Below, piece by piece: positions 4,524 to 51,746 of a DNA stretch of 64,000 nucleotides. Numbering within the stretch: position 1 is the stretch's first letter; each line of letters begins with the position of its first letter. The position numbers were made by a program, and so were the translations under genes. The notes beneath the pieces were generated by a model, which worked only from the letters and a program-made list of their open reading frames with translations, was not told where the DNA came from and ran no database searches. This DNA comes from an uncultured Heliobacteriaceae bacterium (GTDB lineage Bacteria > Acidobacteriota > Blastocatellia > RBC074), in contig CAZWAK010000007.1 of NCBI GenBank assembly GCA_964631865.1, positions 1,934 to 65,933 of the forward strand, read 5' to 3'.

Positions 4524-4769
4524 TTAGTCGGTTTTGGACGAAACAAAGCCCGGCGACTTCACTTTTTTCTCGCCGCGATCTTTGCTATCCCAGAGCGCCA
4601 CAATTTTTTCGATGCGGACGAAGAACGTCTGGTCATCTTTTTCCAATTGCAGAATATCGCCTTCAATTTGGATGACTTTGCCGCTCACTGTGCCCGCGCC
4701 AAAGCTCACGTCAATTTCTTTGCCAATACGATTTGCCAAAATTTCTTTCACTTGCTGCGACTCCTTCAC
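4524..4769 (-). CDS. Small hypothetical protein, possibly Sm/LSm-like
   Basis: 81-aa ORF with a beta-strand-like GKVIQIEGDILQLEKDDQTFFVRIEKIVAL. No firm family assignment. Confidence 0.4.
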   Translation of the reverse strand: MKESQQVKEILANRIGKEIDVSFGAGTVSGKVIQIEGDILQLEKDDQTFFVRIEKIVALWDSKDRGEKKVKSPGFVSSKTD

Positions 4770-4916
4770 TACGTGGTGTCAAAAAGGTGCGTCATTGTAC
4801 TGCAATCCGGCTGATTAGAAAAACCGCGCGCGCCGAAAGTCAGTTTATTTTCTGCGCGAATGTTTGTTATAGTCCCTGCTTACGAACAAGCACATCTCAT
4901 CACGACAGAGGAATTC

Positions 4917-5165
4917 ATGCTCGCAAAAGTTTATGTGACGCTCCGCAACGGCGTGCTCGACCCGCAAGGCAAAGCTATTCATCACGCCGCCACGACCATT
5001 GGTTATCAAGGCATCGCAGACATTCGCCAGGGCAAGTATTTTGCCATCACGTTTGACGATTCCGTAGACGAAGCGCAGGCGTACGAACAATTGGAAAAGC
5101 TCGCGCATGACGTGTTATCGAATCCGGTGATCGAGGATTACCAAATCGAATTGTTGGCCGATTAA
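4917..5165 (+). CDS. purS: Phosphoribosylformylglycinamidine synthase subunit PurS
   Basis: MLAKVYVTLRNGVLDPQGKAIHHA...YFAITFDD... is the PurS signature. Start chosen at the internal Met. Confidence 0.7.
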   Translation: MLAKVYVTLRNGVLDPQGKAIHHAATTIGYQGIADIRQGKYFAITFDDSVDEAQAYEQLEKLAHDVLSNPVIEDYQIELLAD

Positions 5166-5168
5166 GTT

Positions 5169-6608
5169 ATGCCTCTTCCTGCAAAAATCGCGGCGCAATT
5201 ACGTGCCATCTGTGGTGACGATGCGGTCTTGACGGACGCGGCGGACTTGCTCGTCTACGAATACGACGCCGTCACGACGCACCGCGCCCAACCGCTTGCC
5301 GTCGTCTTTCCGCAAACGACCGAACATGTCGCGGGCGTCGTGCGCGTGCTGATGGAGCACGGCATTCCGTACGGCCCGCGCGGCGCAGGCACGGGCTTGA
5401 GTTCGGGCGCAATTGCGCTCGGTTGTGAGGCTGGCGAAGGCGCGGTCATCATTGAAATGGCGCGGATGAATCGCATTCTGGAAATTGACTTCGCCAATCA
5501 ACGCGCGATTGTGCAACCGGGCGTCGTGAATTTGCGGCTCTCGCAAGCCATCGCGTCGCAAGGCTATCACTACGCGCCTGACCCGTCGTCGCAAGCTTCC
5601 TGCACGCTCGGCGGCAACGTCGCGGAAAACTCCGGCGGCCCGCATTGCCTGAAATACGGAATGACGACGAATCACATTCTCGGCCTCGAAGTTGTGTTGC
5701 CCAACGGCAACATCGTGCAATTCGGCGGCGACGCGGCGGACACGATTGGCTACGATTTGCTCGGCACGTTTATCGGCAGCGAAGGCACGCTCGGCATCGC
5801 CACAAAAATCATCGTCAAACTCAGCCGCAACCCGCAAACCGTCGTGACGTTGCTCGCGGATTTTATGGACGTCAACGATGCGAGCCGCGCCGTGTCGGCG
5901 ATCATTGCCGCAGGCTTGCTGCCGGCGGCGTTGGAGATGATTGACCAGCCCACGATTCTGGCGGTCGAATCGTCCATTTACAAAGCGGGTTATGCCACCG
6001 ATGTCGCGGCGTGTTTGATTGTCGAGTTAGACGGCCTGCGCGCAGGGATTGATGGGCAGGCGCAGCGTGCGAAAGATATATGCCTCGAACACGGTGCGCG
6101 CGCGGTGCGAGAAGCGCGCGATGAACTCGAACGCAAAAAACTGTGGGCCGGACGCAAAGGCGCGTTCGGCGCGCTCGGTCGCGTCAGCCCCGATTTGTTT
6201 GTGCAAGACGCGGTTGTGCCACGCACGAAATTGCCCGAAGTGCTGGCCGGGATTTACAAGGTCGCGGAACGGCGCGGCATCCGCTTGTGCAACGTTTTCC
6301 ACGCGGGCGATGGCAATTTGCATCCGACCATCAACTTTGACGGACGCAATGCCGACGAAGTCGAGCGCGTGCATCTCGCCGGCAAAGAAATCATGAAGCT
6401 ATGCGTGGAAGCGGGTGGCTCAATCACGGGCGAGCACGGCGTCGGCGTAGACAAGATTGGTTATATGCCGATGATCTTCGATCAAGCGTCGCTGGATGCG
6501 ATGTTGGCCGTCAAAGAAGTCTTCAATCCGACGGGACTATGCAATCCAGGCAAAGCCATTCCGGCGCAAAAGATGTGTCGGGAGTATCGGAAGGCGGTGC
6601 AGGGGTAG
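5169..6608 (+). CDS. FAD-binding oxidoreductase, glycolate oxidase GlcD / D-lactate dehydrogenase family
   Basis: 479 aa with an FAD-binding PCMH domain (GAGTGLSSGA) and the C-terminal ...GSITGEHGVG... signature. Confidence 0.8.
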   Translation: MPLPAKIAAQLRAICGDDAVLTDAADLLVYEYDAVTTHRAQPLAVVFPQTTEHVAGVVRVLMEHGIPYGPRGAGTGLSSGAIALGCEAGEGAVIIEMARMNRILEIDFANQRAIVQPGVVNLRLSQAIASQGYHYAPDPSSQASCTLGGNVAENSGGPHCLKYGMTTNHILGLEVVLPNGNIVQFGGDAADTIGYDLLGTFIGSEGTLGIATKIIVKLSRNPQTVVTLLADFMDVNDASRAVSAIIAAGLLPAALEMIDQPTILAVESSIYKAGYATDVAACLIVELDGLRAGIDGQAQRAKDICLEHGARAVREARDELERKKLWAGRKGAFGALGRVSPDLFVQDAVVPRTKLPEVLAGIYKVAERRGIRLCNVFHAGDGNLHPTINFDGRNADEVERVHLAGKEIMKLCVEAGGSITGEHGVGVDKIGYMPMIFDQASLDAMLAVKEVFNPTGLCNPGKAIPAQKMCREYRKAVQG

Positions 6609-8354: not shown

Positions 8355-9332
8355 TCATTTAGCAGGAGCTGTGAAGGTGGTGCGATTGGAGCGGAGTTGC
8401 AGCGTGGCATTGACTGGTTCGACGCGCACGTCGTGCTGCTTGCCGTCGCGCATTTCCGGGTAATAGGCCAAACCGTAACTCGCCCGAATCTCTTCGGCCA
8501 GGGCTTTGAAGATGGGCGCAAAGTCGCGCGCATCCGCAGCAAAGTCCCGCCCGCCCGTCGCCGCTACAATGCGTGACGCATCCAACGGCGTAATCACGCG
8601 CTCGGTGTTGCGGCTGGCGGACAAAATATACGAGGGCAAAGTGATGGAATACACAGTCACCCCCGCCGCGTTGGCCCGTCGAATCAACTCCCGACTCTCC
8701 ACCAAACTCGAAGAATCAAAGCCATCCGTAATTACGACAACGACACGCCGCAGCGGTTTGTTGTTTTTGGAGAAATGCGCGCGCCGACTGAGCATCAGCA
8801 CCGCCTTGTCCAGCGCATCATAAATCCGCGTCGAGCCGCCGAAGTGCTCCATCTTGGCGAAGGCGCGCTCAATTTTTTTCTGTTCCGGCGTGAATTCCTG
8901 AAACACTTTCACTTCGTAATTGAAGCCCAGCGCGGCGAACACCGATTCGCCTTTCATCAATTCGGTGAACTTCAACGCGGACGCGCGCAGCGTGGCAATT
9001 TCGTCGGGCTTCAAGCTGCCGGAAAGATCGAGCGCGAAGACCACTGCCAACGGGCGCGATTGCATGACTTCATCGGTCACGCTGAAAAAATCTATCTTCC
9101 GTTGTTGCCCATCCACGAACAAGCGAAAATCGTTGGCCGTCAAATTGCGCACATAGTTGCCGCGTTTGTCCAGCGCCGTCACTTCGACCATCACCAAATC
9201 TGTGTCAATCTTGAGCACGTCGTCGGACGGCTTTTTTTCCTGCGCCGACAACACGAGCGGAGCCAGCAGCATCCACCCAACAGCAAACAAGAGATGCTTC
9301 AGAGCAACAGGTTGGCGGCCAAACGCAAGCAT
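8355..9332 (-). CDS. VWA domain-containing secreted protein
   Basis: Signal peptide, then DLSGSL (MIDAS DxSxS) ... VVVITDGFDSSS, typical of VWA. Confidence 0.8.
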   Translation of the reverse strand: MLAFGRQPVALKHLLFAVGWMLLAPLVLSAQEKKPSDDVLKIDTDLVMVEVTALDKRGNYVRNLTANDFRLFVDGQQRKIDFFSVTDEVMQSRPLAVVFALDLSGSLKPDEIATLRASALKFTELMKGESVFAALGFNYEVKVFQEFTPEQKKIERAFAKMEHFGGSTRIYDALDKAVLMLSRRAHFSKNNKPLRRVVVVITDGFDSSSLVESRELIRRANAAGVTVYSITLPSYILSASRNTERVITPLDASRIVAATGGRDFAADARDFAPIFKALAEEIRASYGLAYYPEMRDGKQHDVRVEPVNATLQLRSNRTTFTAPAK

Positions 9333-9462
9333 GTTTTTAGAACCTTTGGTTAAGCGATCTGCGGATCACAAGCAACGCGCTCGTCACTTGCAGTGCCGGA
9401 CTCGTTCGGCGATTATAAATTCCCGCAGCCCCGGCTGCCAGCAACTTTTCACAGGAGTTTCT

Positions 9463-10128
9463 ATGCGCATCATTTTTTCCAGCTTCGCACCTGATTTCTT
9501 ACGAAGCCTCATCACGCTGAGTTTCATCGCGCTGTCATTCACGACCACACGGGCCGAGGGCGGGCAAATTCAAGGCAAGGTCAAAGAGGACGGCGGCAAG
9601 TCGTTGGCAGGCGTAACGGTCAAAGCCAATCGTGCTGTTACGCGATCACTCGACAATCAAGACACTGGCCAACAGGACTACGAAACGAAAACCAATGACA
9701 AAGGCGAGTTCGTGCTGCGCGGCTTGTTGCCCGGCAATTATGCGCTGACGTTTGAATTGACGGGCTATCGCACGTTCGTCACGCGCCGCTTTGAATTGGC
9801 GGCGGGAGCGACGTTCAAAGTGCCGAACGCCATTGAGATGTCGCGCGAACCCGAAGCACACAGCCTGATTCGCGGTGCGGTGTTGGATGCGAACGGCTAC
9901 TCGCTCGAAAACGCGAGCGTGACGATTGAGCGAACGGATGGCAAGAAGTTCAAGAAATTCGAGAAAGCCTCGGTGGTCGGCGGGCAATTTGCGTTTCGCG
10001 TGCCGTCGGAAACCGGCACCTATCGCATCTCCGCGAGTGCTGACGGCTTTGTCACCGCCACGCAAGAAGTGTCGGTGGACAGAAACGAAATCCGCAGCAT
10101 CGTGATTCAGCTGGAAAAAAAGAAATAA
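9463..10128 (+). CDS. Secreted protein with two carboxypeptidase regulatory-like (CarboxypepD_reg) domains
   Basis: Signal peptide, then IQGKVKEDGGKSLAGVTVKA...GNYALTFELTGYRT and a second IRGAVLDANGYSLENASVTIE...YRISASADGF. Confidence 0.6.
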   Translation: MRIIFSSFAPDFLRSLITLSFIALSFTTTRAEGGQIQGKVKEDGGKSLAGVTVKANRAVTRSLDNQDTGQQDYETKTNDKGEFVLRGLLPGNYALTFELTGYRTFVTRRFELAAGATFKVPNAIEMSREPEAHSLIRGAVLDANGYSLENASVTIERTDGKKFKKFEKASVVGGQFAFRVPSETGTYRISASADGFVTATQEVSVDRNEIRSIVIQLEKKK

Positions 10129-10237
10129 ACCAAGACCTCACCGCAAAGAAACAAAGGGACAAAGGATCAAAGACATTGCGCGTAATATTCTGTGCTTTGT
10201 CACTTTGCCCCGTTGTCCCTTTGCGGTGGCTACGTTC

Positions 10238-11569
10238 TTACTGATTCATCGAATTCAGGAACTCGCCATTGCTCTTGGTGCGATCCAGCCGATCCAGCAC
10301 CAATTCCATTTGCTCCACTGGCGACAACGGATTCAGCACGCGGCGCAGCACCCAAATGCGGTCGAGGTCTTTCTTCTGAATCAACAATTCTTCTTTGCGT
10401 GTGCCCGATTTCTGCAAATCAATCGCCGGGAAGACGCGCTTGTCGGAGAGCTTGCGATCCAGGTGAATTTCCATGTTGCCCGTGCCTTTGAATTCTTCAA
10501 AGATCACATCGTCCATACGGCTGCCGGTTTCGACGAGCGCCGTCGCAATGATCGTCAGGCTGCCGCCCTCTTCGATGTTGCGCGCCGCGCCGAAAAATCG
10601 CTTCGGACGTTGCAAGGCGTTCGAGTCCACACCGCCGGAGAGAATCTTGCCCGAAGGCGGAACCACGGAGTTGTGGGCGCGCGCCAGACGGGTGATGGAG
10701 TCGAGCAGGATCACGACATCGCGTCCGTGCTCAACCAACCGTTTGGCTTTTTCAATGACCATGTCAGCGACCTGGACGTGGCGCGACGCGGGTTCATCAA
10801 ACGTCGAGGAAATCACTTCGCCGTTGACGGAACGCTGCATGTCGGTCACTTCTTCCGGGCGCTCATCAATGAGCAACACGATCAACGTCACTTCGGGATG
10901 ATTTTCCGTAATCGAATTCGCAATCGTTTGCAGCAGCACCGTTTTACCGGTGCGCGGCGGTGCGACGATCAAGCCGCGCTGCCCTTTGCCAATCGGTGTG
11001 ACGAGGTCAATCACGCGACCGGACAGGCTTTCCGAGGCCGTCTCCATCTTCAGATGTTCGTTCGGATAGAGCGGCGTCAGGTTGTCAAAGAAAATTTTAT
11101 CGCGCGCAATGTCGGGCGGCTCGAAGTTAATCGCTTCGACCTTGATGAGCGCGAAATATCGCTCGCCTTCTTTGGGCGGACGAATTTGACCGGAGATCGT
11201 ATCGCCCGTGCGCAAATCAAATTTGCGAATCTGCGACGGACTCACGTAAATGTCGTCCGGGCCGGGTAAGTAGTTGTACTCCGGTGCCCGCAAAAAGCCG
11301 AAGCCATCGGGTAGTGTTTCCAGCACGCCTTCCGAGAAGATCAAGCCGGACTTTTCGGTCTGGGCTTGCAGGATTTTGAAGATCAATTCCTGCTTGCGCA
11401 TACCGGTCGCGCCGGGGACTTCGAGTTCTTTCGCGATGCCCGTCAATTTGGAGATGCTCATCTCCTTGAGTTCCGAAATGTCGAGTAAATTAGAGTCGAG
11501 CAATTCTTCTTCTTCTTCGTAATAATCGACCACTTCTCGTTCACGTGCTTTTGCTGATTTGTCTGCCAT
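10238..11569 (-). CDS. rho: Transcription termination factor Rho
   Basis: N-terminal RNA-binding region, then the P-loop [12 protein letters not shown], the Q- and R-loops and the C-terminal ...[19 protein letters not shown]. The start could also be at 11647. Confidence 0.9.
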
Positions 11570-11913
11570 AACTTTGTTCTTGAGCGGCTCTTGTGCAACC
11601 AAGCGCCGCGGTAATTGCCCTTGCGGGGCAAGAGGTTGTTCTTCCAAGGGGGATTGCGCAGTGTGGGTACTTCACACTGTATGCGTTTTAGAAACCAAGC
11701 CGAAGGGGTACCGCGACCGTCGCAGAGACAAGCCGAATCAGCTTAGGGGGCATTGTTCGTTCTGTTGCAGATAATGAATACCGCTAGGATGTCATCGCCG
11801 ACTTGCGCTTGATTATCAGTAATTCTGCCGACGATGTTTTGGGATTATTGGTGATGCGAGAGTCAGCACGCTACTCTCGTGTGAAGTTCTGTTGTTACCG
11901 CCAGGGAGATTTG

Positions 11914-16618: not shown

Positions 16619-17899
16619 ATGAACCGACGAACCTTTCTCCACTTCGCAACCATTGCTTTTCCGGCGTTCGCTCGCAACGCACAAGCCGATAAAACGCTGC
16701 CGCCCGTGCGCCGCATCACCAACGGCCCGAAATTCCACTGGTTCGGCTACTACGACAAATGGCAATTCGATCCGACCGGACGTTATGTGCTGGGCATGGA
16801 AGTCTCGTTCGAGCACCGTTCGCCGACGGCTGAGGACATCATCAAAATCGGGATGGTGGATTTGCAGGACGGCGACCGTTGGATTGAGTTGGGCGAAACG
16901 CGCGCGTGGAATTGGCAGCAAGGCTGCATGCTGCAATTCATTCCCGGCTCCAAAACCGACATCATCTGGAACGACCGCGTCGGCGATCAGTTTGTTTCGT
17001 ACATCCTCAACATCAAGACGCGCCAACGACGCACCTTGCCCGCGCCGATTTATGCCTTGAGTCCTGATGGCAAAACCGCGATTGCGCCCGATTTTCGCCG
17101 CTTGAATGACTGTCGCCCCGGCTACGGCTACGCCGGGCTGCCCGACCCGAATCGAGATGCGTTGCGCCCCGACAACGCAGGCATCTGGAAAATGGATTTG
17201 CGCACGGGCAAACAGGAATTGCGGATCACCTTCGCAGACATTGCGAAGATTCCGTATCAGGAAAAGAGCCGCCCCAATCACAACGATCCCGACAAGGCCA
17301 AGCATTGGTTCAATCACTTGTTGTTTGCGCCCGATGGCAAGCGATTCCTGTGGCTGCATCGCTGGCGCGTGTTTGAAAATATGGAGCGGCAAACCGCCGC
17401 GCGCGGCGGCTTCTCCACGCGAATGCTGACGGCGAATGTAAATGGACAAGATCGCTTTGTCGTTGACCCGTACGGCGGCACCTCGCATTTCATCTGGCGC
17501 GACCCGCAGCACATCGCCGCCTGGGCGTGGAACCCGCAACGCAACGAACGCTTCTACCTTTTCAAAGACAAGACCAGTGAAGTCACACCGCTCGCACCCG
17601 ACGTGATGACGGTCAACGGTCACAACACGTATTTGCCACGCCACAACAATCGCTGGATTCTGAACGACACCTACCCCGACAAAGACCGCCTGCAACATCC
17701 GTATTTGTACGACACCAAAACCAATCAACGACACGCGCTCGGACATTTCTACTCGCCACCCGAATACGTCGGCGAATGGCGCTGCGACACGCATCCGCGC
17801 TTCAGCCCCGACGGCAGGAAATGCGTAATTGATTCGACACACGAAGGTTTGGGACGGCAAATGTACCTGATAGATTTCAGCACGATTGTGGCTTCATGA
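16619..17899 (+). CDS. Tat-signal exported beta-propeller protein (oligogalacturonide-lyase-like / TolB-like)
   Basis: RRTFLHF twin-arginine motif and repeated SPDG/APDG beta-propeller-like blades. The family assignment is tentative. Confidence 0.5.
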   Translation: MNRRTFLHFATIAFPAFARNAQADKTLPPVRRITNGPKFHWFGYYDKWQFDPTGRYVLGMEVSFEHRSPTAEDIIKIGMVDLQDGDRWIELGETRAWNWQQGCMLQFIPGSKTDIIWNDRVGDQFVSYILNIKTRQRRTLPAPIYALSPDGKTAIAPDFRRLNDCRPGYGYAGLPDPNRDALRPDNAGIWKMDLRTGKQELRITFADIAKIPYQEKSRPNHNDPDKAKHWFNHLLFAPDGKRFLWLHRWRVFENMERQTAARGGFSTRMLTANVNGQDRFVVDPYGGTSHFIWRDPQHIAAWAWNPQRNERFYLFKDKTSEVTPLAPDVMTVNGHNTYLPRHNNRWILNDTYPDKDRLQHPYLYDTKTNQRHALGHFYSPPEYVGEWRCDTHPRFSPDGRKCVIDSTHEGLGRQMYLIDFSTIVAS

Positions 17900-17925: not shown

Positions 17926-17969
17926 GTTACCAAATGGTAACTACCAAATGGTAACTACCAAATGGTAAC
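17926..17969 (+). promoter_or_regulatory. Three tandem palindromic 14-16-mers (GTTACCAAATGGTAAC, then TACCAAATGGTAAC x2) 20 bp upstream of the ADP-ribosylglycohydrolase start; candidate operator
   Basis: Read directly from the sequence. Each unit is a TACCA-N-TGGTA inverted repeat. Confidence 0.4.
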
Positions 17970-17990
17970 TGATGTCTCGAAGAGTGCGAT

Positions 17991-18875
17991 ATGAGGAACG
18001 AACACCGAATTCTCGGCTGCCTGCTCGGTGGCGCAATTGGCGATGCGTTTGGCGGCGTGTATGAAAACCAATCGCCACCCGTTGACTTCACGAAAGACTA
18101 CGATTGGCGGTTGTCCGATGATACGCAGCTAACGCTCGCCACTTGCGAAGCCATCATCGAAGCGAACGGCCAAATCGAACCGGCAAAGATCGCAGCCCGC
18201 TTTGCCGTGTGGCATCGTGCGGGGCGCGTCACCGGAATGGGAGCCAGCACGCTCAAGGCATTGACCGAATTGAGCGCAGGCGGGCATTGGGCGTTGGTGG
18301 GCAGAAAAGGCGAACGCGCGGCAGGCAACGGCGCGGCAATGCGAAGCGCGCCGCTGGCATTTTTTCTCAATCCGCAAAATCCCCGTGACAAACAACTCAT
18401 CCGCGACGTCAGCCGCATCACGCATCATCACGACGAAGCCTACGCGGGCGCGCTCGCCATCGTGACAGCGATTCGCGCTGCGTTCGATGGCGCTTGGACG
18501 GGCGAACCGAATTTGCTTGGAATGGTGATTGATGTTTTGCCGGATACAAGTGTGCGCGACCGATTGATGGAATGCGCCCGGCTGGATTGGCCGCTGGCAG
18601 AAGTTGCGCGGCGTTTTGGCAACTCCGGCTATGTGGTCGAATCGGTTCCGCTGGCAATTTACGGCGCGCAGCAAGTGGCGTCGCTCGGCTTTGCCACCTT
18701 GCTGCGCGAATTGGCGGCAACGGGCGGCGACACGGATACGATTGCGGCAATGGCTGGGCAAATCGCAGGCACGTTGCTCGGTCAGCACGGACTGCCGAAC
18801 GAATTCCTCACGCGGTTGCCTGAGCAGGAAGCCATCTTTTTGACCGCCCGTGCGCTCGCAGCACTCAACGCATAA
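17991..18875 (+). CDS. ADP-ribosylglycohydrolase family protein
   Basis: LGGAIGDAFG... DDTQLTLA ... GGDTDTIAAMAGQIAG are typical ARH/DraG motifs. Confidence 0.85.
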   Translation: MRNEHRILGCLLGGAIGDAFGGVYENQSPPVDFTKDYDWRLSDDTQLTLATCEAIIEANGQIEPAKIAARFAVWHRAGRVTGMGASTLKALTELSAGGHWALVGRKGERAAGNGAAMRSAPLAFFLNPQNPRDKQLIRDVSRITHHHDEAYAGALAIVTAIRAAFDGAWTGEPNLLGMVIDVLPDTSVRDRLMECARLDWPLAEVARRFGNSGYVVESVPLAIYGAQQVASLGFATLLRELAATGGDTDTIAAMAGQIAGTLLGQHGLPNEFLTRLPEQEAIFLTARALAALNA

Positions 18876-19439: not shown

Positions 19440-19769
19440 TTACTTCTTAAAGTTGGGATTGGGCGTCATAAAGACCAGCAAGGTGAGGCGAGCGTCGCTC
19501 GCGTTGCGCACGCCGTGCAGTGCTCCGGCGGGCGCAAAAACGATTTCGTTCGTGCTGAGTTCGCGTTCTTCCTCGCCGACCAAAAACGTGCCGCGCCCGT
19601 CCAACACATAATAAATTTTGTCGGCATCATCGTGTGCATGCGGCTTTTGTTCCTGACCGGGTTCCAATCCGTACACGTCGCAGAAAAAATTCGGCGTCTC
19701 GTACAGATTGGTTTTCTGCATTTTTTCGAGGGCAAAGCGCGCCTCGGCGAAAACGTGTTTGGGATTCAT
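19440..19769 (-). CDS. Cupin domain protein
   Basis: ...HAHDDADKIYYVLDGRGTFLVGEEE...IVFAPAGALHGVRN... is a cupin motif. Start at MNPKHV; the longer ORF-track N-terminus runs through the heptamer repeat and is rejected. Confidence 0.7.
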   Translation of the reverse strand: MNPKHVFAEARFALEKMQKTNLYETPNFFCDVYGLEPGQEQKPHAHDDADKIYYVLDGRGTFLVGEEERELSTNEIVFAPAGALHGVRNASDARLTLLVFMTPNPNFKK

Positions 19770-19857
19770 GGGTTGGTGGTTGGTGGTTGGTGGTTGGTGG
19801 CTGGTGGTTGGTGGTTGGTATGAAACTAACCACCAACCACCAGCCACCAACCACCAA
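19770..19857. repeat. Heptamer-repeat hairpin: (TTGGTGG)x~7, loop, (CCACCAA)x~4, with a roughly 29-bp perfect stem filling the whole intergenic space
   Basis: ggttggtgg...ctggtggttggtggttggta tgaaacta accaccaaccaccagccaccaaccaccaa. Confidence 0.85.
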
Positions 19858-20397
19858 TTATTTCACTTTGAATGAACGCGCGATGGCGTCGGTTTGGCTG
19901 CGCAGGGCTTCCATCGTGCCGCGATTGCCCGTGAAGCGCAGTAGGTACACAGTCGTTTCATTCACTTGCAAATAATAGTTGCGGCCTTTCTTCGGGCGTC
20001 CGCCTTGCGTGAAATCATAAGCTGTAACCGCTGCCGGAATCTTGCCGCCGCCGGCACTGAAATCTTCCAGCGCGCCTTTTGTGTAGCCCGGCAGGAAGGT
20101 CAACGTTTGCCCTTCATCTTTTTTGAAGACATCAATAAGTTTCGCATCTTTTTCGACTTCGATGCGACGCACTTTCAGCAAACTGTCTTCGCGGACTTTG
20201 TACACGACTTCGATCTGTTTGCGACCCAAGCCGTCCTGACTTTGAATCGCCAGCCAATCAGCGTTGGGCAAAGTCAACGAATATTTTCCTTCGGGGTCAT
20301 CAATGGTGTTTCCTTGCGCTTCAGCTTTGCGTAACGATGAAACACCGAGCACTAACCCCATCACCGCAAATGCGAGAAAGCAAAATCTCAACTTCAT
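19858..20397 (-). CDS. Secreted hypothetical protein
   Basis: Signal peptide MKLRFCFLAFAVMGLVLGVSSL. No recognisable domain. Confidence 0.55.
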   Translation of the reverse strand: MKLRFCFLAFAVMGLVLGVSSLRKAEAQGNTIDDPEGKYSLTLPNADWLAIQSQDGLGRKQIEVVYKVREDSLLKVRRIEVEKDAKLIDVFKKDEGQTLTFLPGYTKGALEDFSAGGGKIPAAVTAYDFTQGGRPKKGRNYYLQVNETTVYLLRFTGNRGTMEALRSQTDAIARSFKVK

Positions 20398-21196: not shown

Positions 21197-22049
21197 GCTC
21201 CAAAACCTCAACGGCTTCCAGATGTTCGAGTGGATAGCCTAAAAATCGTTCCGCGATACGATGAAACCGCGCCGCCGCGTCCGTCACATAAAACTCGCTC
21301 CAGCCTTTGTCCGTTTGCGGATTGCGCAACTTGCGTTCGTGCAGCAGCGTTTCAATTTCGGCAGCCGTCGCCGCGCCGGAGTCAATCAATGTGACATCGC
21401 CGCCGATTGTTTCAGCAATCACGGTTTTTAGCAAAGGGTAATGTGTGCAACCGAGCACGAGCGTGTCAATTTGCTGGGCACGCAACGGCGCAAGATATTT
21501 TTCCGCGACTTGATGCGCGATGGCGGAATCCGTTTCGCCTTCTTCGACGAGCGGCACAAACAGCGGACAGGCTTGCGAAACGATTTCGACCGCGTCGTGA
21601 CAAGCCTCGCGCAAACCATCGGCATACGCCCCGCTGCCAATCGTCGCTTCGGTCGCAATCACACCGATGCGCTGATTCTTCGTCGCCCGCGCCGCCGCGC
21701 GCACGCCCGGCCCGATCACGCTCAAAAACGGCACATCAAATTCGCGCCGCAACCGTTCGCGCGCCAACGCCGACGCCGTGTTGCACGCAATGATGATGAC
21801 TTTGACGCCTTTGTGAATTAGGAACGCGGCATCTTCGACGGCATAACGTTCGACCGTCGCGCGCGATTTCGTCCCATACGGCACGCGCGCCGTATCGCCC
21901 AAATAAATCAGGTTCTCATTCGGCAATCGTTCGCGCACCGCGCGCAGCACGGTCAGCCCGCCAACACCGGAATCAAAAATTCCGATGGGCAGTGAAGGTT
22001 GGGCATGTTGTTCCGATGATTGCATCAAGGCAGGAATCTCAAATTTCAA
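21171..22049 (-). CDS. murI: Glutamate racemase
   Basis: [14 protein letters not shown]...ACNTAS...LGCTHYPLL are the MurI catalytic motifs. It overlaps the rph start by about 26 nt. Confidence 0.85.
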
Positions 22050-22076
22050 ATCTCAAATCTCAAATTCGAGATGTAA

Positions 22077-22442
22077 TGGTGGAGGTGGTCGGAATCGAAC
22101 CGACGTCTAGCAGCCATTCACGAAAGAATCTACATACTTAGCCGCTTCGATTATGTTTTCACTCCCGCGCGGTAGTGCGAAGCGGCGAAGAACCGCGCGC
22201 GAGCTATGCCAGAGAAGTCTCGCTCTCCAACTCTGACCTGCGTCAGAAAGCCAGCCGATACAAGTGACGCTCGGAGCCACGCCTATCGGCGAAACGTGGG
22301 CGAACGGGCTGTGAACTAGAGTTAACTAGGCAGCCATTGCGAGTTCTTGATTCGCAATTATGTTTTGCTTGCAGAGTACGGGTTACAAGCATCCCGGTAT
22401 GCATCCGTCGCTGCAGGTCTCCTATCGAAACCAATGCACCCC
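22077..22442 (-). ncRNA. ssrA: tmRNA (SsrA)
   Basis: The minus strand reads 5' GGGGGTGCATTGGTTTCGATAGG... and ends ...GTCGGTTCGATTCCGACCACCTCCACCA, giving a tRNA-like acceptor, T-arm and CCA. An internal ORF ...GCG AAT CAA GAA CTC GCA ATG GCT GCC TAG TTAA suggests a tag ending ANQELAMAA. Confidence 0.75.
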
Positions 22443-22541
22443 CACATTCAAAGAGCGTTTCTATTGTCAGGGAAACGCGGACGGTTTAGAGTCTACGGTT
22501 CGTAAAGATGTGTGTCAAGCACCTGATTTTTCGAGGATTTC

Positions 22542-36290: not shown

Positions 36291-36403
36291 GTTGGGTGCG
36301 GGGCGCATCCTGCGGGCTGAGGCTCACGGGGTGAATCCCTTATTACGATGAAAGCCTCAGCCTTCGCAAGCCTCAGCCCGCAGGATGCGCCCCGCACCCA
36401 ACA
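36291..36403. terminator. 34-bp perfect inverted repeat with a 45-nt loop, ending at the stop codon of the GMC oxidoreductase gene
   Basis: gttgggtgcggggcgcatcctgcgggctgaggct ... agcctcagcccgcaggatgcgccccgcacccaac. Confidence 0.6.
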
Positions 36404-38092
36404 TTACACCTCGCCGCGTTTGGCTTGCTCAATCAAGTATTCACTCGCGCGCATTGCCAGTGCCAGAATCGTCAGCGTCGGATTCACGCAGCCGCTCGAC
36501 ACAAAGCAACTGCCATCCACGACGAACAAATTTTTCACATCGTGCGCTTGATTGAATTGATTGAGCACCGAAGTCTTTTTGTCATTGCCCATGCGCGCGG
36601 TTCCGACTTCGTGAATGCTGTGACCGGGCGGGAACATGGCGAGGTTTTCGCTGACCAATTCGACGCCCGCCGCCTCAAACATTTCGTGCGCGCATTCAAT
36701 CGCATCGTTCGTCAGGTTTTGTTCGTTGTCGCCGTAAGCAATGTCAATCTTGAGCGACGGAATGCCCCACGCATCTTTCAGGTTCGGATCAATCGCAACG
36801 TGATTTTCCTTGCGCGCGAGGACTTCGCCAAACGCACTCATCCGCACAAACGCGGGATGCAACGCGCGGACTTCGGTTTTGAAATCTTTGCCAAAACCCG
36901 CCGTCGTTTTTGCGTGGCTGGGGAAAATCCCAGCGCCGCTCCCCGCTTGATAGCCAAAGCGGCGAATGTATTTTTGCTGCTTCGACGCTTTGTCCAAATT
37001 GCGAAACGGCGGGATGTATGTGCCTTGCGGACGCCCGTCTTCATTGACGATTTCGCGTCCTTTGAAATCTTTGATTAGCCCCGTGAAGCTCACGCCCCAC
37101 GTGTGATCGTGCAAATATTTGCCGAGCACGCCGCTCGAATTCGCCAGGCCGTTTGGATACTCGCGCGAAGTCGAATTGAGCAAAATGCGCGTGGATTCGA
37201 GCGTGGACGCGCCGAGAATCACGACTTTGCCGAGCGCTTCGTAATCGCGCTTCGAGGTGCGATCAATGAAGCGCACGCCTTTTGCTTTGCCGGTTTTGGA
37301 ATCCAACAAAACTTCGCGCACCACCGCATCCGAACGCAGCGTCAGCTTGCCCGTGTCGTTCGCCGGAGCAAGCAAGCCCGTCGGCGAATTGAACATTGCG
37401 CCGACATCGCAGCCGCGCCCGCACGTGCCGCAGTAATGACAGGCCGCGCGATATTTGTTGTGCGCGAGTTTTTCGCTGATGACGCCTGCGCGCGTCGGAA
37501 TCAAATGACGTCCGGTTTTCTCCACGCCACGCTGCAAAATCTTTTCGCCACACAGCATCGGCTGTGGCTTTTGAAAGATGCCGTCAGGCAATTGCGGCAA
37601 GCCTTCGCGTGTGCCCATAATCCCGATCAAACGATCTACGTGGTCGTAGTACGGCTGCAAATCATCGTATGAAATCGGCCAGTCATCGCCGTAACCATCG
37701 TGCGAAGCGGCTTTGAAATCGAACTCGCTCAAACGCAACGCCACGCGCCCCCACACGAGCGTGCGACCGCCGACAGCCCGCGCGCGTACCCAATCGAACG
37801 GCTTATCTTTCGGCGTCGAATACGGGTTTTCATCGAGCCGTGCGTAGATGTGTGTCGTGTAGCCGTCGGCGAACCCGTATTTGTAATTGTGCGCATCGCG
37901 CGGCGAGATGCGACCGCGATATTTTTCTTCGTACGGCCAAGTGTGCGTTTTGAAGTCGTTGTATAAATCCAGCTTCGGCCCGGCTTCGAGAACTAACACA
38001 TCCATTCCCGCTTTGGTGAGCATGTACGCCGCCATCCCGCCTGCCGCGCCCGAACCAACAATGACGGCATCATAAATTTTTTGGGTGGTCAT
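36404..38092 (-). CDS. GMC family oxidoreductase
   Basis: VIVGSGAAGG FAD-binding motif and GMC C-terminal signatures. 562 aa. Confidence 0.85.
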   Translation of the reverse strand: MTTQKIYDAVIVGSGAAGGMAAYMLTKAGMDVLVLEAGPKLDLYNDFKTHTWPYEEKYRGRISPRDAHNYKYGFADGYTTHIYARLDENPYSTPKDKPFDWVRARAVGGRTLVWGRVALRLSEFDFKAASHDGYGDDWPISYDDLQPYYDHVDRLIGIMGTREGLPQLPDGIFQKPQPMLCGEKILQRGVEKTGRHLIPTRAGVISEKLAHNKYRAACHYCGTCGRGCDVGAMFNSPTGLLAPANDTGKLTLRSDAVVREVLLDSKTGKAKGVRFIDRTSKRDYEALGKVVILGASTLESTRILLNSTSREYPNGLANSSGVLGKYLHDHTWGVSFTGLIKDFKGREIVNEDGRPQGTYIPPFRNLDKASKQQKYIRRFGYQAGSGAGIFPSHAKTTAGFGKDFKTEVRALHPAFVRMSAFGEVLARKENHVAIDPNLKDAWGIPSLKIDIAYGDNEQNLTNDAIECAHEMFEAAGVELVSENLAMFPPGHSIHEVGTARMGNDKKTSVLNQFNQAHDVKNLFVVDGSCFVSSGCVNPTLTILALAMRASEYLIEQAKRGEV

Positions 38093-38103: not shown

Positions 38104-38193
38104 AAAGAGGCGTCAAGAGTTCAAGCTTCAGCTTGGTTTTTCAGTCACACAAGCGCAAACCCAAGCTAAAGCTTGAACTCTTGACGCCTCTTT
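38104..38193. terminator. About 90-nt near-perfect palindrome (25-bp outer stem plus inner stem) between the 2OG-oxygenase stop and the GMC start. Member of a palindromic element family.
   Basis: aaagaggcgtcaagagttcaagctt ... aagcttgaactcttgacgcctcttt followed by tttt. Confidence 0.65.
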
Positions 38194-48528: not shown

Positions 48529-48547
48529 AGCTGCGCCCGCGAACACA

Positions 48548-48624
48548 GGCGTCAAGAGTACGCGCTTCAGCGTGATTTTGCTTTCGATGACAAACCCTCA
48601 CGCTGAAGCGTGTACTCATGACAC
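48548..48624. terminator. 28-bp-stem hairpin between the convergent sialidase-like and murQ genes. Second member of the palindromic element family.
   Basis: ggcgtcaagagtacgcgcttcagcgtga ... tcacgctgaagcgtgtactcatgacacc, then tctttt. Confidence 0.65.
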
Positions 48625-48630
48625 CTCTTT

Positions 48631-49521
48631 TCACGATTTCAGTTCAGCCACAGCCTGCGCGACCAATTGATTCGACTTTGCCAACGCCGCGTCTGCGATC
48701 TCCCGATTTACATTCGCTTGCTGCATCACGAGCGCCACAGGCAATCGCCAATCCGCTGCTTCCAACACGGCGCGCGCTGTCGCGGCATCTACCTTGCATT
48801 CGTCCTGCACGATGCCGACCGCGCGTTCGCGCAGCTTGATGTTTTTGGTTTGCAGGTTCGCCATGCGATTGCCCTTCACATAGCCGAGCCGCACCAGCGC
48901 CATCGTCGAAAGCATATTCAGCACGAGCTTTTGTGCGGTGCCGGATTTCAGCCGCGTCGAACCGGCGATGACTTCGGGGCCGACAATCGGTTCAATTGGA
49001 ATTTCGACCGCTGCCGCGAGTGCGGTGTTCGCGTTGCACGTGATGCACGCGGTCAATGCGCCGAGTTGCCGTGCGTATTCGACTGCGCCGATGGTGTACG
49101 GCGTGCGACCGCTCGCAGCAATGCCGACGACGACATCGTTGGCGTTGACGTGGCGCGCTTGCAAATCGCTCGCGCCCGCGGCGCGATCATCTTCGGAGGC
49201 TTCGACGGCTTTGTAACAAGCTTCGTAGCCGCCTGCGATGATGCCTTGCACGAGTTCGGGCGACACGCCAAACGTCGGCGGACATTCCGCAGCGTCGAGC
49301 ACGCCCAAGCGTCCGCTCGTGCCTGTGCCGACGTACAACAAACGGCCTCCGCGCGCGAGCCGTTCGACGATTGCGTCAACGGCGTTCGCAATCGCGGGCA
49401 GGACTTGCGCAATGGCATCGGCGACTTTTTTGTCTTCGGCATTGATGATTTGTAAGGCTTCGAGCGTAGAGACGCGATCAATTTCTGCGGTGTTGGGGTT
49501 GGGTTGTTCAGTGGTGGTCAT
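48631..49521 (-). CDS. murQ: N-acetylmuramic acid 6-phosphate etherase
   Basis: SIS domain ...LLYVGTGTSGRLGVLDAAECPPTFG... Confidence 0.85.
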   Translation of the reverse strand: MTTTEQPNPNTAEIDRVSTLEALQIINAEDKKVADAIAQVLPAIANAVDAIVERLARGGRLLYVGTGTSGRLGVLDAAECPPTFGVSPELVQGIIAGGYEACYKAVEASEDDRAAGASDLQARHVNANDVVVGIAASGRTPYTIGAVEYARQLGALTACITCNANTALAAAVEIPIEPIVGPEVIAGSTRLKSGTAQKLVLNMLSTMALVRLGYVKGNRMANLQTKNIKLRERAVGIVQDECKVDAATARAVLEAADWRLPVALVMQQANVNREIADAALAKSNQLVAQAVAELKS

Positions 49522-50780: not shown

Positions 50781-50854
50781 AGTTGTCAGTTGTCAGTGGC
50801 TGGTTGTCAGCTACTGTGTTTTTGCTGGCAACTGACAACCGACAACTGACAACT
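50781..50854. promoter_or_regulatory. Heptamer-built palindrome (TTGTCAG x3, T-rich centre, CTGACAA x3) in the divergent promoter region between the kinase gene and the LysR gene
   Basis: agttgtcagttgtcagtggctggttgtcag ctactgtgtttttgctggcaa ctgacaaccgacaactgacaact. Confidence 0.6.
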
Positions 50855-50858
50855 GCTT

Positions 50859-51746
50859 ATGGAATTCCGACAACTCCGAACTCTGCTGGCCATTGCGGAA
50901 ACGCGCAACTTCACGCGCGCGGCGGAGCGTGTGCATTTGACGCAGGCTGCCGTGAGCGCGCAGATCAAAACGCTTGAAGCCGAAACCGGCGTGCCGTTGT
51001 TTGCGCGCGTGAACAAAAAAGTTTTTCTGACCGAGGCGGGCGAATTGCTGGTGCGACGCGCCGAGCGTTTGCTCAAAGCGCACGACGAAGCTTTGCTTGC
51101 GCTCAAGGAATTGGGCGATGCCGAACGAGGCCGCCTGCGCATCGGCACGGCTTCGACGATGGCCAGCAATGAGCAATTGCCAACGATTCTCGCGGAACTC
51201 AAACGCGCGTATCCGAAAGCACAAGTCACCGTGCGCCGCGCGACGAGTGCGGAAATCGTCGCGCAGATTTTGCAAAACGATTTGGATGTCGGCTTGGTTT
51301 CGCTGCCCGTCGAGGCCAACGACATTCGCGCTGAGGTGTTGCAACGAGATCGTCTAGTTGCTATCGTGCAACCTGCTCATCCCCTCGCGCATCAACGCAG
51401 CATAAGCCCCCTACAACTCGCTGCCGAGCCGCTGATTCTCGGTGAACAGGGCGGCAACACCCGACGGTTAATTGATTTGTTTTTTGAGAAATCTGGTGTG
51501 CGGCCCCAAGTGGTCATGGAATTGGGCAGCAACACTTCGATCAAACGCATGGTCGAGCACGGCCTGGGCGTGAGCCTGCTGCCGCGTTCGTCGGTGCGCG
51601 AGGAGATGAAGGCTGGTAAACTAATTGCGTTGCCGGTGCGTGGCTTTAAGGATAATTGGGAATTGGGGCTGGTCACGCTCAAAGGCGATCACGTGCCGCC
51701 CCTGCAACGAGCCTTCAAGCAGCTTTGCAAACAATATTTCGACTGA
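50859..51746 (+). CDS. LysR family transcriptional regulator
   Basis: N-terminal HTH ...LRTLLAIAETRNFTRAAERVHLTQAAVSAQIKTLE... and a substrate-binding domain. Confidence 0.85.
   Translation: MEFRQLRTLLAIAETRNFTRAAERVHLTQAAVSAQIKTLEAETGVPLFARVNKKVFLTEAGELLVRRAERLLKAHDEALLALKELGDAERGRLRIGTASTMASNEQLPTILAELKRAYPKAQVTVRRATSAEIVAQILQNDLDVGLVSLPVEANDIRAEVLQRDRLVAIVQPAHPLAHQRSISPLQLAAEPLILGEQGGNTRRLIDLFFEKSGVRPQVVMELGSNTSIKRMVEHGLGVSLLPRSSVREEMKAGKLIALPVRGFKDNWELGLVTLKGDHVPPLQRAFKQLCKQYFD

Follow-up and report, generated by a model that had tools for sequence, protein, structure and literature searches.

What is the purpose of a gap between two genes that is occupied, from one stop codon nearly to the next start codon, by a short repeat and its own mirror image? 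The question is raised by an 88-nt spacer at positions 19770-19857 of a 64-kb stretch of contig CAZWAK010000007.1, which derives from a soil acidobacterium and has a G+C content of 54.5%; the whole of this stretch is referred to here as the window. The spacer lies between two co-oriented genes on the minus strand, the first encoding a predicted secreted protein of 179 residues and the second a small Cupin_2 protein, and it harbors a long hairpin made of mirrored heptamers. There is little room for doubt that the element is an inverted pair of heptameric simple-sequence-repeat (SSR) arrays in the intercistronic spacer of a murI-rph-179aa-cupin gene string, in which 179aa stands for the secreted-protein gene. 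As to its function, the reading that we favor, with a probability of around one half, is that of an intercistronic mRNA stem-loop that is built by repeat slippage, is maintained, and acts after transcription. The post-transcriptional role taken on its own is put forward a little more tentatively.

On the plus strand, Tandem Repeats Finder (TRF) reports 7.0 copies with a period of 7 at 19771-19819 (95% matches; unit GGTTGGT, which is TTGGTGG in a shifted register) and 4.3 copies of the complementary unit, also with a period of 7, at 19828-19857, the matches within the two arrays lying at 91-95%. An inverted-repeat search places two arms, each of 33 nt, at 19787-19819 and 19825-19857, which are 97% complementary and have 5 nt between them. 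The spacer thus displays the layout of a heptamer pair, with at least two head-to-tail units and a convergent complementary array, 5-11 nt apart and 97-100% complementary. When the minus-strand RNA is folded, 19857-19828 forms 30 unbroken Watson-Crick pairs with 19816-19787, of which 18 are G-C pairs, and the stem is capped by an apex (19817-19827) consisting of a 1x1 mismatch, two additional pairs and a 5-nt loop (19824-19820). The predicted energy is -64.4 kcal/mol, compared with -30.9 +/- 3.6 kcal/mol for 200 dinucleotide-preserving shuffles (z = -9.4), none of which (0/200) was as stable.

In the mRNA, the 5' arm (19828-19857, minus strand) is (UUGGUGG)4.3, includes one CUGGUGG variant, and begins right at the end of the 179-residue gene, whose TAA (19860-19858) touches the first base of the stem with 0 nt between them. 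The paired portion of the 3' arm (19787-19816, minus strand) is made up of CCACCAA units and includes a compensating CCACCAG variant. As the arms are unequal, the 5' arm of the mRNA having 4.3 units and the 3' arm 7, 17 nt (19786-19770, minus strand) are left unpaired before the cupin ATG at 19769-19767. This G-free, C/A-rich tail comprises 2.4 surplus CCACCAA units and a terminal CCC, has a probability of being unpaired of 0.72-0.86, and brings the repeats of the second arm to within 3 nt of the start codon, in the form (CCACCAA)7-CCC-ATG. No Shine-Dalgarno sequence precedes the cupin ATG, in that GGAG, GAGG and AGGA are all absent from the tail; by a crude estimate, around one third of the genes in the window have such a sequence, including that of the 179-residue protein (AAGGAGA). 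Nine of the ten matches to a TTGGTGG dimer in the window are at the spacer (0.27 expected by chance), and TTGGTGG arrays occur once in the 64 kb. No Rfam family matches the spacer at gathering thresholds, and a permissive search returned, on both strands, sub-threshold generic long-hairpin matches to eukaryotic microRNA precursors, which were discarded as meaningless.

An earlier, sequence-only reading of this DNA had described the spacer as filled by a repeat-built hairpin, which TRF, the inverted-repeat search and the fold all bear out. The perfect stem of about 29 bp that it proposed is present, at 30 bp, although the hairpin takes up about 71 of the 88 nt rather than the whole spacer. Similarly, the roughly seven units and their complement are right for the 3' side of the mRNA but not for the 5' side, with its 4.3 units, and the suggested 8-nt loop has to be replaced by an apical loop of 5 nt, or by 11 nt if counted between the perfect arms.

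The case for maintenance of the hairpin comes from its relatives. The spacer between the stop codon of the 179-residue gene and the cupin ATG was recovered in its orthologous form from nine lineages, between which the two flanking proteins are 70-88% identical. All nine spacers contain one long hairpin, with predicted energies of -32 to -64 kcal/mol, which starts 0-2 nt past the stop codon in eight lineages and 8 nt past it in the most distant, L215/216, where the unit is a 9-mer. The hairpin mostly ends 2-17 nt before the cupin ATG, the exception being L121, in which about 60 nt of surplus repeat units are found 3' of the stem. Spacer length varies between lineages from 72 to 123 nt, nearly all of which is hairpin plus repeat tail, and a Shine-Dalgarno sequence before the cupin gene is absent in all nine lineages. 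The nature of the unit also varies, with 3 to 13 copies per arm and at least five unit types (TTGGTGG, TCGGTGR, TCGGTTG, TCGGTAG and the 9-mer) among the nine lineages. The unit is specifically TTGGTGG in the window, TYGGTGG in L125-127, TCGGTGR or CTGGTGG in L211, TCGGTTG in L120/121 (3.5 units opposite 13), GGTTGTC in both L123/124 and L208-210 (three units per arm, with a loop of 21-24 nt), TYGGTAG mixed with TCGGTTG in L212/213, and GAGAGTCCA in the 9-mer lineage.

The 5' arms of the eight heptamer lineages were aligned in register from the stop codon, giving 27 homologous columns and 216 cells, of which 193 (89%) are paired. Two-sided compensatory change is seen in 11 of the columns and one-sided change (G.U) in 5, and the remaining 11 are invariant. 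Cognate arms pair with a mean energy of -49 kcal/mol as against -35 kcal/mol for non-cognate arms, and three compatibility groups are visible. The unit type does not track protein similarity. The window, which is of the GGTGG type, is nearest to L208 of the GGTTG type (88%), and L211 (GGTGR) is nearest to L123 (GGTTG; 88%), so a switch of unit, compensated on both arms and in all units, has happened more than once. Position and pairing have been kept while the repeat unit has been repeatedly replaced on both arms, which argues that it is the hairpin that is maintained, rather than its sequence or a G-quadruplex. L120 and L121 provide an example among close relatives. The two have the same 179-residue and cupin proteins, flanks with 99.1% identity and spacers of equal length, and yet the spacers differ by six substitutions, in which five consecutive 3'-arm units go from ACCGACA to ACCGACT and the facing 5'-arm unit goes from TCGGTTG to TCGGTAG. 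On the sense strand, G.U pairs outnumber A.C and C.A mismatches by 21 to 11, or by 19 to 5 if the 9-mer lineage is left out and L120/L121 is counted once, an excess that weakly favors an RNA-level structure on the mRNA strand. These counts were used in place of a comparison of sense and antisense folding energies, which was dropped as an RNA-level test because G/T-rich antisense arrays self-pair through G.U.

The same pattern is repeated at another orthologous site. In the window, the spacer between the 3' end of the transfer-messenger RNA gene (tmRNA; 22077-22443, minus strand) and the start of murI contains a (UUUGAGA)4-5 array at 22035-22069 on the minus strand, which has a short partner only. 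In relatives, the corresponding spacer holds long mirrored heptamer hairpins that span from the end of tmRNA to the murI ATG (L119, 2263-2366; L120, 2274-2350; L123, 2270-2367; L125, 1045-1134; L208, 261-368), built from (CAAAAGG)n/(CCTTTTG)n in four lineages and from (GAGATTT)n/(AAATCTC)n in one other. The hairpin is therefore retained at this site while the unit is wholly replaced.

Outside the lineages that keep the cupin, the region 3' of the 179-residue gene takes other forms. Distant orthologues of this gene (35-52% identity) are followed by a different gene, and their stop codon usually then precedes a classical terminator with a GC stem and T-run, although a few have mirrored-repeat stems with a T-run instead (L130 and L133, TTTTCAG; L156, GGCAGTA; and L129). 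Post-stop hairpins are thus the norm at the 179-residue gene, and in part of the Acidobacteriota they are assembled from tandem units. In L119, whose 179-residue protein is 84% identical, a DDE_Tnp_1 insertion sequence (4541-5363) begins 14 nt past the stop codon and occupies the place that the hairpin and cupin take in other lineages.

Within lineages the element is far more constant. In six of the seven within-lineage contig comparisons the spacers are identical, with flanks that are 98.1-100% identical (100% in three cases); three of the comparisons cover part of the spacer, as a contig terminates within it. One identical spacer is accompanied by 32 differences in 1.7-kb flanks, the strains being 2% apart, and the sole variable comparison (99.1% identical flanks) keeps the same spacer length. 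The frequent change of unit number that characterizes phase variation of the hmw1A type is thus not seen in these comparisons and, as near-identical strains share their spacer length, the repeat is not a fast switch. The previously suggested variation in arm length accordingly holds between species-level relatives (3-13 units) but not between sister strains. The hairpin also coincides with the limits of assembled sequence, as five independent contigs (L118, L122, L127, L214 and L217) end within it, which comprise four Logan short-read assemblies and one Joint Genome Institute (JGI) metagenome contig. Mirrored arrays systematically break assemblies, and their number in metagenome-assembled genomes is hence probably underestimated.

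The same kind of element is found well beyond this gene string. A scan for (TTGGTGG)3 with one genome per species, which is a sample and not a census, gave at least 117 loci, with the window's own genome not among the matches listed; the hosts of these matches include Blastocatellia, other Acidobacteriota, Planctomycetota, Gemmatimonadota, Chloroflexia, Armatimonadota, Verrucomicrobiota, Bacteroidota (Saprospiraceae and Haliscomenobacter) and Nostocales, among others. TTGGTGG arrays occur in at least 10 phyla and often lie beside arrays of one-mutation neighbors such as TTAGTGG, TTGGTGA and TTGTTGG (loci L001-L117). A broader census covered the window together with all of the related and unrelated DNA retrieved, amounting to 1.2 Mb, for tandem arrays with a period of 5-10. 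Of the 611 arrays found, 405 are of heptamers, and 88, or 75 once redundancy is removed, are mirrored in the manner of a hairpin. The earlier suggestion of a class of elements is thereby confirmed, with three mirrored arrays in the window itself.

Several regularities emerge from this census. In 66 of the 88 mirrored hairpins, the G/T-rich arm precedes the C/A-rich one, the 17 exceptions being mostly CAAAAGG/CCTTTTG stems that end in T-runs, and (CCACCAA)n arrays have their pairing partner on the 5' side in 39 cases and on the 3' side in one. Since an inverted repeat is identical on both strands, this polarity bias cannot come from gene orientation or from the direction of replication. Adjacency to the stop codon of a long open reading frame (ORF) is observed for 68% of mirrored arrays, a proportion that falls to 39% for direct-only heptamer arrays and to 15% for shifted controls. 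An entire stop-to-start interval on one strand is spanned by 29 of 75 mirrored arrays, the corresponding counts being 11 of 268 for controls and 40 of 241 for direct-only arrays, and a position between convergent stop codons is found for 7 of 75 mirrored arrays versus 1 of 241 direct-only arrays. Among 14 independent cases from six phyla that were inspected by eye, the spacers are typically 59-180 nt with the stem 0-6 nt past the stop codon, and 12 have no Shine-Dalgarno sequence. In the stop-to-start cases, the unpaired tail is longer on the side of the start codon in 20 of 22, with one equal and one reversed. Where a direct-only array immediately precedes an ATG, its sense strand is C/A-rich by 41 to 14. 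This ATG-only analysis of direct arrays, along with the pairing-polarity test, replaced a first test of orientation at start codons (44 vs 25, p = 0.03), which was weak because TTGGTGG contains GTG and so inflates false starts. In a similar manner, greedy longest-ORF gene calling, which mis-called small genes including the cupin, was abandoned for the context classes in favor of stop-anchored and start-anchored tests with shifted controls.

The other two mirrored arrays in the window have quite different surroundings. A heptamer hairpin (AGTTGTC/CTGACAA) at 50781-50854 on the plus strand, which the sequence-only reading had rightly picked out as having the same architecture, has a predicted energy of -40.6 kcal/mol (z = -6.5) and the G/T-first polarity. 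It stops 4 nt short of the start codon (ATG) of a gene for a LysR-family regulator (50859-51746), which lacks a Shine-Dalgarno sequence, and lies in a divergent spacer facing a gene for a BadF/BcrA-type ATPase. A mirrored octamer hairpin (CAAAGGRA/TCCCTTTG) at 10139-10228 is positioned where a CarboxypepD_reg-domain gene (9157-10128, plus strand) and the gene for the Rho factor (10238-11647, minus strand) converge, between their stop codons, and is more stable on the rho strand (-48.3 kcal/mol) than on the other (-40.6 kcal/mol). Further repeats of other kinds are also present. The long inverted repeats at 38104-38193 and 48538-48635 have arms of 37-38 nt, a common motif, AGGCGTCAAGAGT, and A- and T-runs at their sides, and may represent a dispersed family that is REP-like (repetitive extragenic palindromic) or acts as a bidirectional terminator. 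A perfect 34-nt inverted repeat (GTTGGGTGCGGGGCGCATCCTGCGGGCTGAGGCT) with a spacer of 44 nt is found at 36291-36402 and adjoins an imperfect one at 36446-36599. A 14-mer tandem array, (TACCAAATGGTAAC)3.6, at 17928-17977 lies in the 90-nt spacer of two plus-strand genes (16619-17899 and 17991-18875), the latter of which is ADP-ribosylglycohydrolase-like.

Of the genes on either side of the 88-nt spacer, the upstream one (19858-20397, minus strand) encodes a protein with a signal-peptide-like N-terminus that matched no Pfam family, and homologues with identities of 84% and 66% are found in a 'Blastocatellia bacterium' and an 'Acidobacteria bacterium', respectively, which makes Blastocatellia (Acidobacteriota) the most probable source of the window. 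The downstream gene (19440-19769, minus strand) encodes a Cupin_2 protein of 109 residues, the true start of which is the ATG at 19769; a 136-residue ORF with a TTG start that reads through the repeat is spurious. It had been anticipated that the repeat would generate false ORF extensions that mislead annotation, and, besides this 136-residue ORF in the window, public gene calls in two relatives do indeed lengthen the 109-residue cupin to 135 residues. An exact-protein look-up found neither the 109- nor the 136-residue form of the cupin on record, and the 179-residue neighbor was used instead. The gene string tmRNA-murI-rph-179aa-cupin is kept in relatives, and the genes around the spacer are housekeeping genes or of unknown function, not genes for surface antigens.

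The reading that we favor brings these observations together as follows. Replication slippage would add or remove 7-nt units within each arm, and selection for pairing, or else template switching between the arms (quasipalindrome correction), would hold the arms complementary, so that any drift in the unit sequence involves both arms at once. The cupin gene is co-oriented and syntenic in all relatives, is only 72-123 nt away, and is preceded by a spacer that is nearly all repeat, and so it is probably reached by read-through; the spacer would in this way be transcribed as part of a polycistronic mRNA. In this mRNA, a stem of 26-33 bp is predicted to extend from the stop codon of the 179-residue gene to a few nucleotides short of the cupin ATG. 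Because the C/A-rich second arm is longer than the G/U-rich first arm, a G-free, unstructured leader with no Shine-Dalgarno sequence is left before the start codon, and these surplus units may support Shine-Dalgarno-independent initiation of the cupin. The stem itself would act as a barrier to 3' exonucleases on behalf of the upstream cistrons, as a putative substrate of the double-strand-specific RNase III, or as both. Stems of such length and perfection are typical RNase III substrates. Through either activity, the stem would determine how stable, and how strongly translated, the upstream cistrons are in relation to the cupin.

A number of points weigh against this reading. We infer the read-through, the processing and the effect on expression, and the RNase III step takes the presence of the enzyme in the organism as given. 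The same changes, at positions 2 and 6 of the unit, are repeated in every unit, so the 11 co-varying columns represent few independent events, and template switching between the arms could alone yield compensatory changes without selection on RNA. The excess of G.U pairs may also stem from strand-biased C-to-T mutation and from the preference of the folding algorithm for G.U. How accessible the start region is differs from lineage to lineage, with the probability of being unpaired at -10 to -1 ranging from 0.18 to 0.89, which speaks against a uniform design for masking the ribosome-binding site and led to uniform sequestration of this site being ruled out; positions -20 to -11 are buried in the stem in four lineages (probability unpaired 0.00-0.14). 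Finally, a single function for all such elements is unlikely, given that the architecture is also seen at 50781-50854, in a divergent promoter region, and at 10139-10228, where the flanking genes converge.

The hairpin might alternatively be a neutral by-product, in which heptamer slippage expands the arrays up to the coding boundaries and template-switch repair keeps the arms alike, so that the structure has no role of its own. Such a process is suggested by the predominance of heptamers (405 of 611 arrays) and of direct-only arrays, by the presence of mirrored arrays in co-oriented, divergent and convergent spacers alike, and by the fully occupied spacer, which is the expectation of unconstrained expansion between two ORFs. 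The difference between L120 and L121 also resembles the copying of a variant unit within and between arms, and Rehm et al. (PMC4692102) found no function for the repeats of Xanthomonas. We nevertheless regard this explanation as unlikely, as a hairpin is present at the same site in 9 of 9 cupin-keeping lineages despite 12-30% protein divergence and repeated unit turnover, with 89% of cells paired, and strains 2% apart share an identical spacer between flanks with 32 differences. Neutral expansion, moreover, does not predict either the polarity (39:1 and 66:17) or the stop-codon adjacency (68% vs 39% for direct-only arrays), and the tmRNA-murI site likewise retains a hairpin under complete replacement of its unit. 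A role at the level of DNA appears very improbable, whether as a protein-binding or replication-pausing structure (a G-quadruplex or a cruciform) or as a contingency locus that switches expression by unit number. GGTTGGTGGTTGG resembles the formers of two-tetrad G-quadruplexes, such as the thrombin-binding aptamer. GGGAATC repeats do form G-quadruplexes in vitro (Rehm et al., PMC4692102), and heptamer SSRs drive the phase variation of hmw1A (PMC12721329). The units discussed here, however, have GG runs only, and most orthologues have TCGGTTG or TCGGTAG with one GG per unit, from which it follows that G-quadruplex potential is not conserved whereas pairing is. A duplex of -64 kcal/mol would out-compete a two-tetrad quadruplex, near-identical strains have a stable unit number, and the adjacent genes do not encode surface antigens. 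The G-quadruplex reading was rejected on the grounds that G-tract content is not conserved among the orthologues; a set of four or more G3 tracts is also not present.

Two further explanations retain a role for the transcript. The first of these, also advanced in the sequence-only reading as a device to insulate the two genes, is that the stem terminates or attenuates the murI-rph-179aa unit by stopping or pausing RNA polymerase, fully or partly. The hairpin begins right at the stop codon as terminators do, distant orthologues (35-52%) have GC-stem and T-run terminators or, in a few cases, mirrored-repeat stems with a T-run, the CAAAAGG/CCTTTTG hairpins 3' of tmRNA in relatives look terminator-like, and mirrored arrays are enriched between convergent stops (7/75 vs 1/241 direct-only). 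Yet the sequence after the stem in the window is CCAACCACC / CCAACCACCAACC / CCAACCACCAACCACCC rather than a U-tract, C/A-rich units follow the stem in every close relative, and a consensus scan found no terminator- or promoter-like sites in 19770-19857. The co-oriented cupin gene, syntenic in all relatives, has neither room nor a match for a promoter of its own, and in many genomes the same polarity brings the C/A arm right up to a start codon. With no U-tract, no terminator-like site and a co-oriented cupin, the element is not a canonical terminator, and the idea that it insulates the two genes is not supported; partial attenuation may take place at the stem, but termination or attenuation as the explanation is improbable. 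Translational coupling, to which we likewise assign little probability, would have the terminating ribosome melt the base of the stem, free the C/A leader, and re-initiate or be handed over across a nominal 72-180 nt, and the stop-to-start bridge possibly also masks a Rho-loading tract (Rho is encoded in the window). It would fit the 29 of 75 mirrored arrays that stretch from a stop codon (0-10 nt off) to a start codon, the stem that adjoins the stop with surplus units on the start side in 20 of 22 cases, the burial of -20 to -11 within the stem in four lineages, and the lack of Shine-Dalgarno sequences in the cupin lineages and in 12 of 14 independent cases, compared with their presence in about one third of the genes in the window. 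Against this, coupling is something that we infer in its entirety, start codons in several lineages are already accessible, the same elements occur without an upstream cistron (50781-50854) or without a downstream one (10139-10228), and direct-only arrays also fill stop-to-start spacers (40/241).

A more speculative proposal, which we consider quite unlikely, is that mirrored heptamer hairpins running from stop to start constitute a widespread, slippage-tuned RNA device in phyla with few Shine-Dalgarno sequences, which may include the Acidobacteriota, Planctomycetota, Chloroflexota, Armatimonadota, Bacteroidota and Cyanobacteria. If this were true, the helix would set the terminating ribosome beside the downstream start, and the C-rich, Rho-attracting leader would be masked until a ribosome opens the helix, thereby providing both translational coupling and anti-polarity over long spacers. 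The 5'-G/U, 3'-C/A polarity and the surplus units of the 3' arm would then be the signature of the mechanism.

Returning to the reading of a maintained stem-loop that acts after transcription, the element can be compared with a number of known systems. Like Rho-independent terminators, it is a GC-containing stem-loop immediately 3' of a stop codon, but it differs from them in having no U-tract, a far longer stem (30+ bp), and a co-oriented gene next to it without a promoter-like site. In E. coli operons such as malE-malF, the hairpins of REP sequences and bacterial interspersed mosaic elements (BIMEs), along with intercistronic RNase III sites, are stems without U-tracts between co-transcribed genes, which are cleaved or else shield the upstream mRNA against 3' exonucleases, leading to differential expression within the operon. 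REPs are, however, a dispersed family with a conserved consensus that is mobilized by REP-associated tyrosine transposases (RAYTs), whereas the spacer hairpin consists of tandem units with no dispersed consensus and the other mirrored arrays in the window use unrelated units. Membership of a REP-like dispersed family was rejected, as TTGGTGG arrays occur once in 64 kb.

Among heptamer repeats, the heptanucleotide long SSRs (LSSRs) of prokaryotes (Mrazek et al. 2007), described as the most abundant long SSRs, and the short tandemly repeated repetitive (STRR) sequences of heterocystous cyanobacteria (Mazel et al. 1990) are both known to us as cited in PMC4679880 and PMC4692102. As they are portrayed there, they share with the arrays described here their intergenic position, the over-representation of tandem heptamers relative to other lengths (405 of 611 in our census) and a presumed origin in polymerase slippage. 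They are, on the same accounts, direct arrays, and the mirrored hairpin layout and conservation at orthologous sites are outside their definition. The TAACTGA direct repeats of marine Beggiatoaceae end a few nucleotides from starts that lack a Shine-Dalgarno sequence, and a role in translation is suspected (MacGregor 2015; PMC4679880). The forward array (CCACCAA)7, which ends 3 nt before an ATG without a Shine-Dalgarno sequence, is similar in this respect, but its unit is different, units vary from site to site in the window, and the array in the leader has a complementary partner upstream with which it pairs, whereas TAACTGA is inverted in 1 of 170 sets. The (ATCTTTC)n array in the hmw1A 5' untranslated region of Haemophilus influenzae, which is the sole heptamer-SSR hairpin to have been dissected experimentally, is transcribed and forms a long hairpin whose cleavage by RNase III alters expression (Rapun-Araiz et al. 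2025; PMC12721329). It is the nearest precedent as regards mechanism. Here too, a heptamer array provides an arm of a long, in our case predicted, RNA hairpin adjoining a start codon. In hmw1A, though, the other arm is a unique G-rich sequence and not a mirrored array, and the locus is the promoter region of a fast phase-variable adhesin, in contrast to an intercistronic element with a stable unit number between close strains.

The closest counterparts are the inverted GGGAATC pairs of Xanthomonas, and the element is of the same kind as these and belongs, more broadly, with the heptanucleotide long SSRs that are found in many bacteria. Rehm et al. (2015; PMC4692102) described heptamers of GGGAATC in Xanthomonas, with 70-75 inverted pairs per genome, and of GGGGA(C/T)T in Nostoc. 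These are G-rich on the coding strand up to 50 bp past stop codons and on the non-coding strand just upstream of ORFs, are mostly located between co-oriented genes, and are mostly transcribed, with sites common to two species but varying in length and sequence; no function was found for the Xanthomonas repeats, which were interpreted through G-quadruplexes (PMC4692102). The resemblance extends to the tandem 7-nt units, usually in few copies, the two close convergent arrays in an intergenic position, the G-rich strand past the stop and C-rich strand before the ORF, the retention of the site with variation in length and sequence, the preference for co-oriented genes, and the lack of any link to surface or virulence genes. 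The differences are in the phylum, here the Acidobacteriota, and in the units (TTGGTGG, TCGGTTG and others), which have no G3 tracts, so that the G-quadruplex idea of PMC4692102 does not apply and the element falls within the architectural class but outside the G-quadruplex subclass. The covariation of the arms across lineages and the whole stop-to-start span were analyzed only in the present work and not in PMC4692102.

Heptamer repeats have been recognized in bacteria since the 1990 report of STRRs and, according to the 2007 work, are the most over-represented class of long SSR, with no function agreed upon in the accounts cited above. The spacer and its orthologues offer a clean comparative case for the function of such repeats. 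There is also a practical side to their recognition, in that the downstream protein gains 26-27 spurious residues in gene calls and short-read assemblies are broken at the hairpin. The three rules of polarity, stop-codon adjacency and 3' surplus make function experimentally approachable, and they can be applied to any culturable strain of Blastocatellia, Xanthomonas or Nostoc as a G/U-rich arm that comes first, a stem that starts at the stop codon, and a C/A-rich tail ahead of a start codon without a Shine-Dalgarno sequence. In relation to the Xanthomonas pairs, then, the architecture, placement and polarity were known already, and the phylum and the units are new; what is added is evidence for maintenance of the hairpin through unit turnover at two orthologous sites, together with these three rules.

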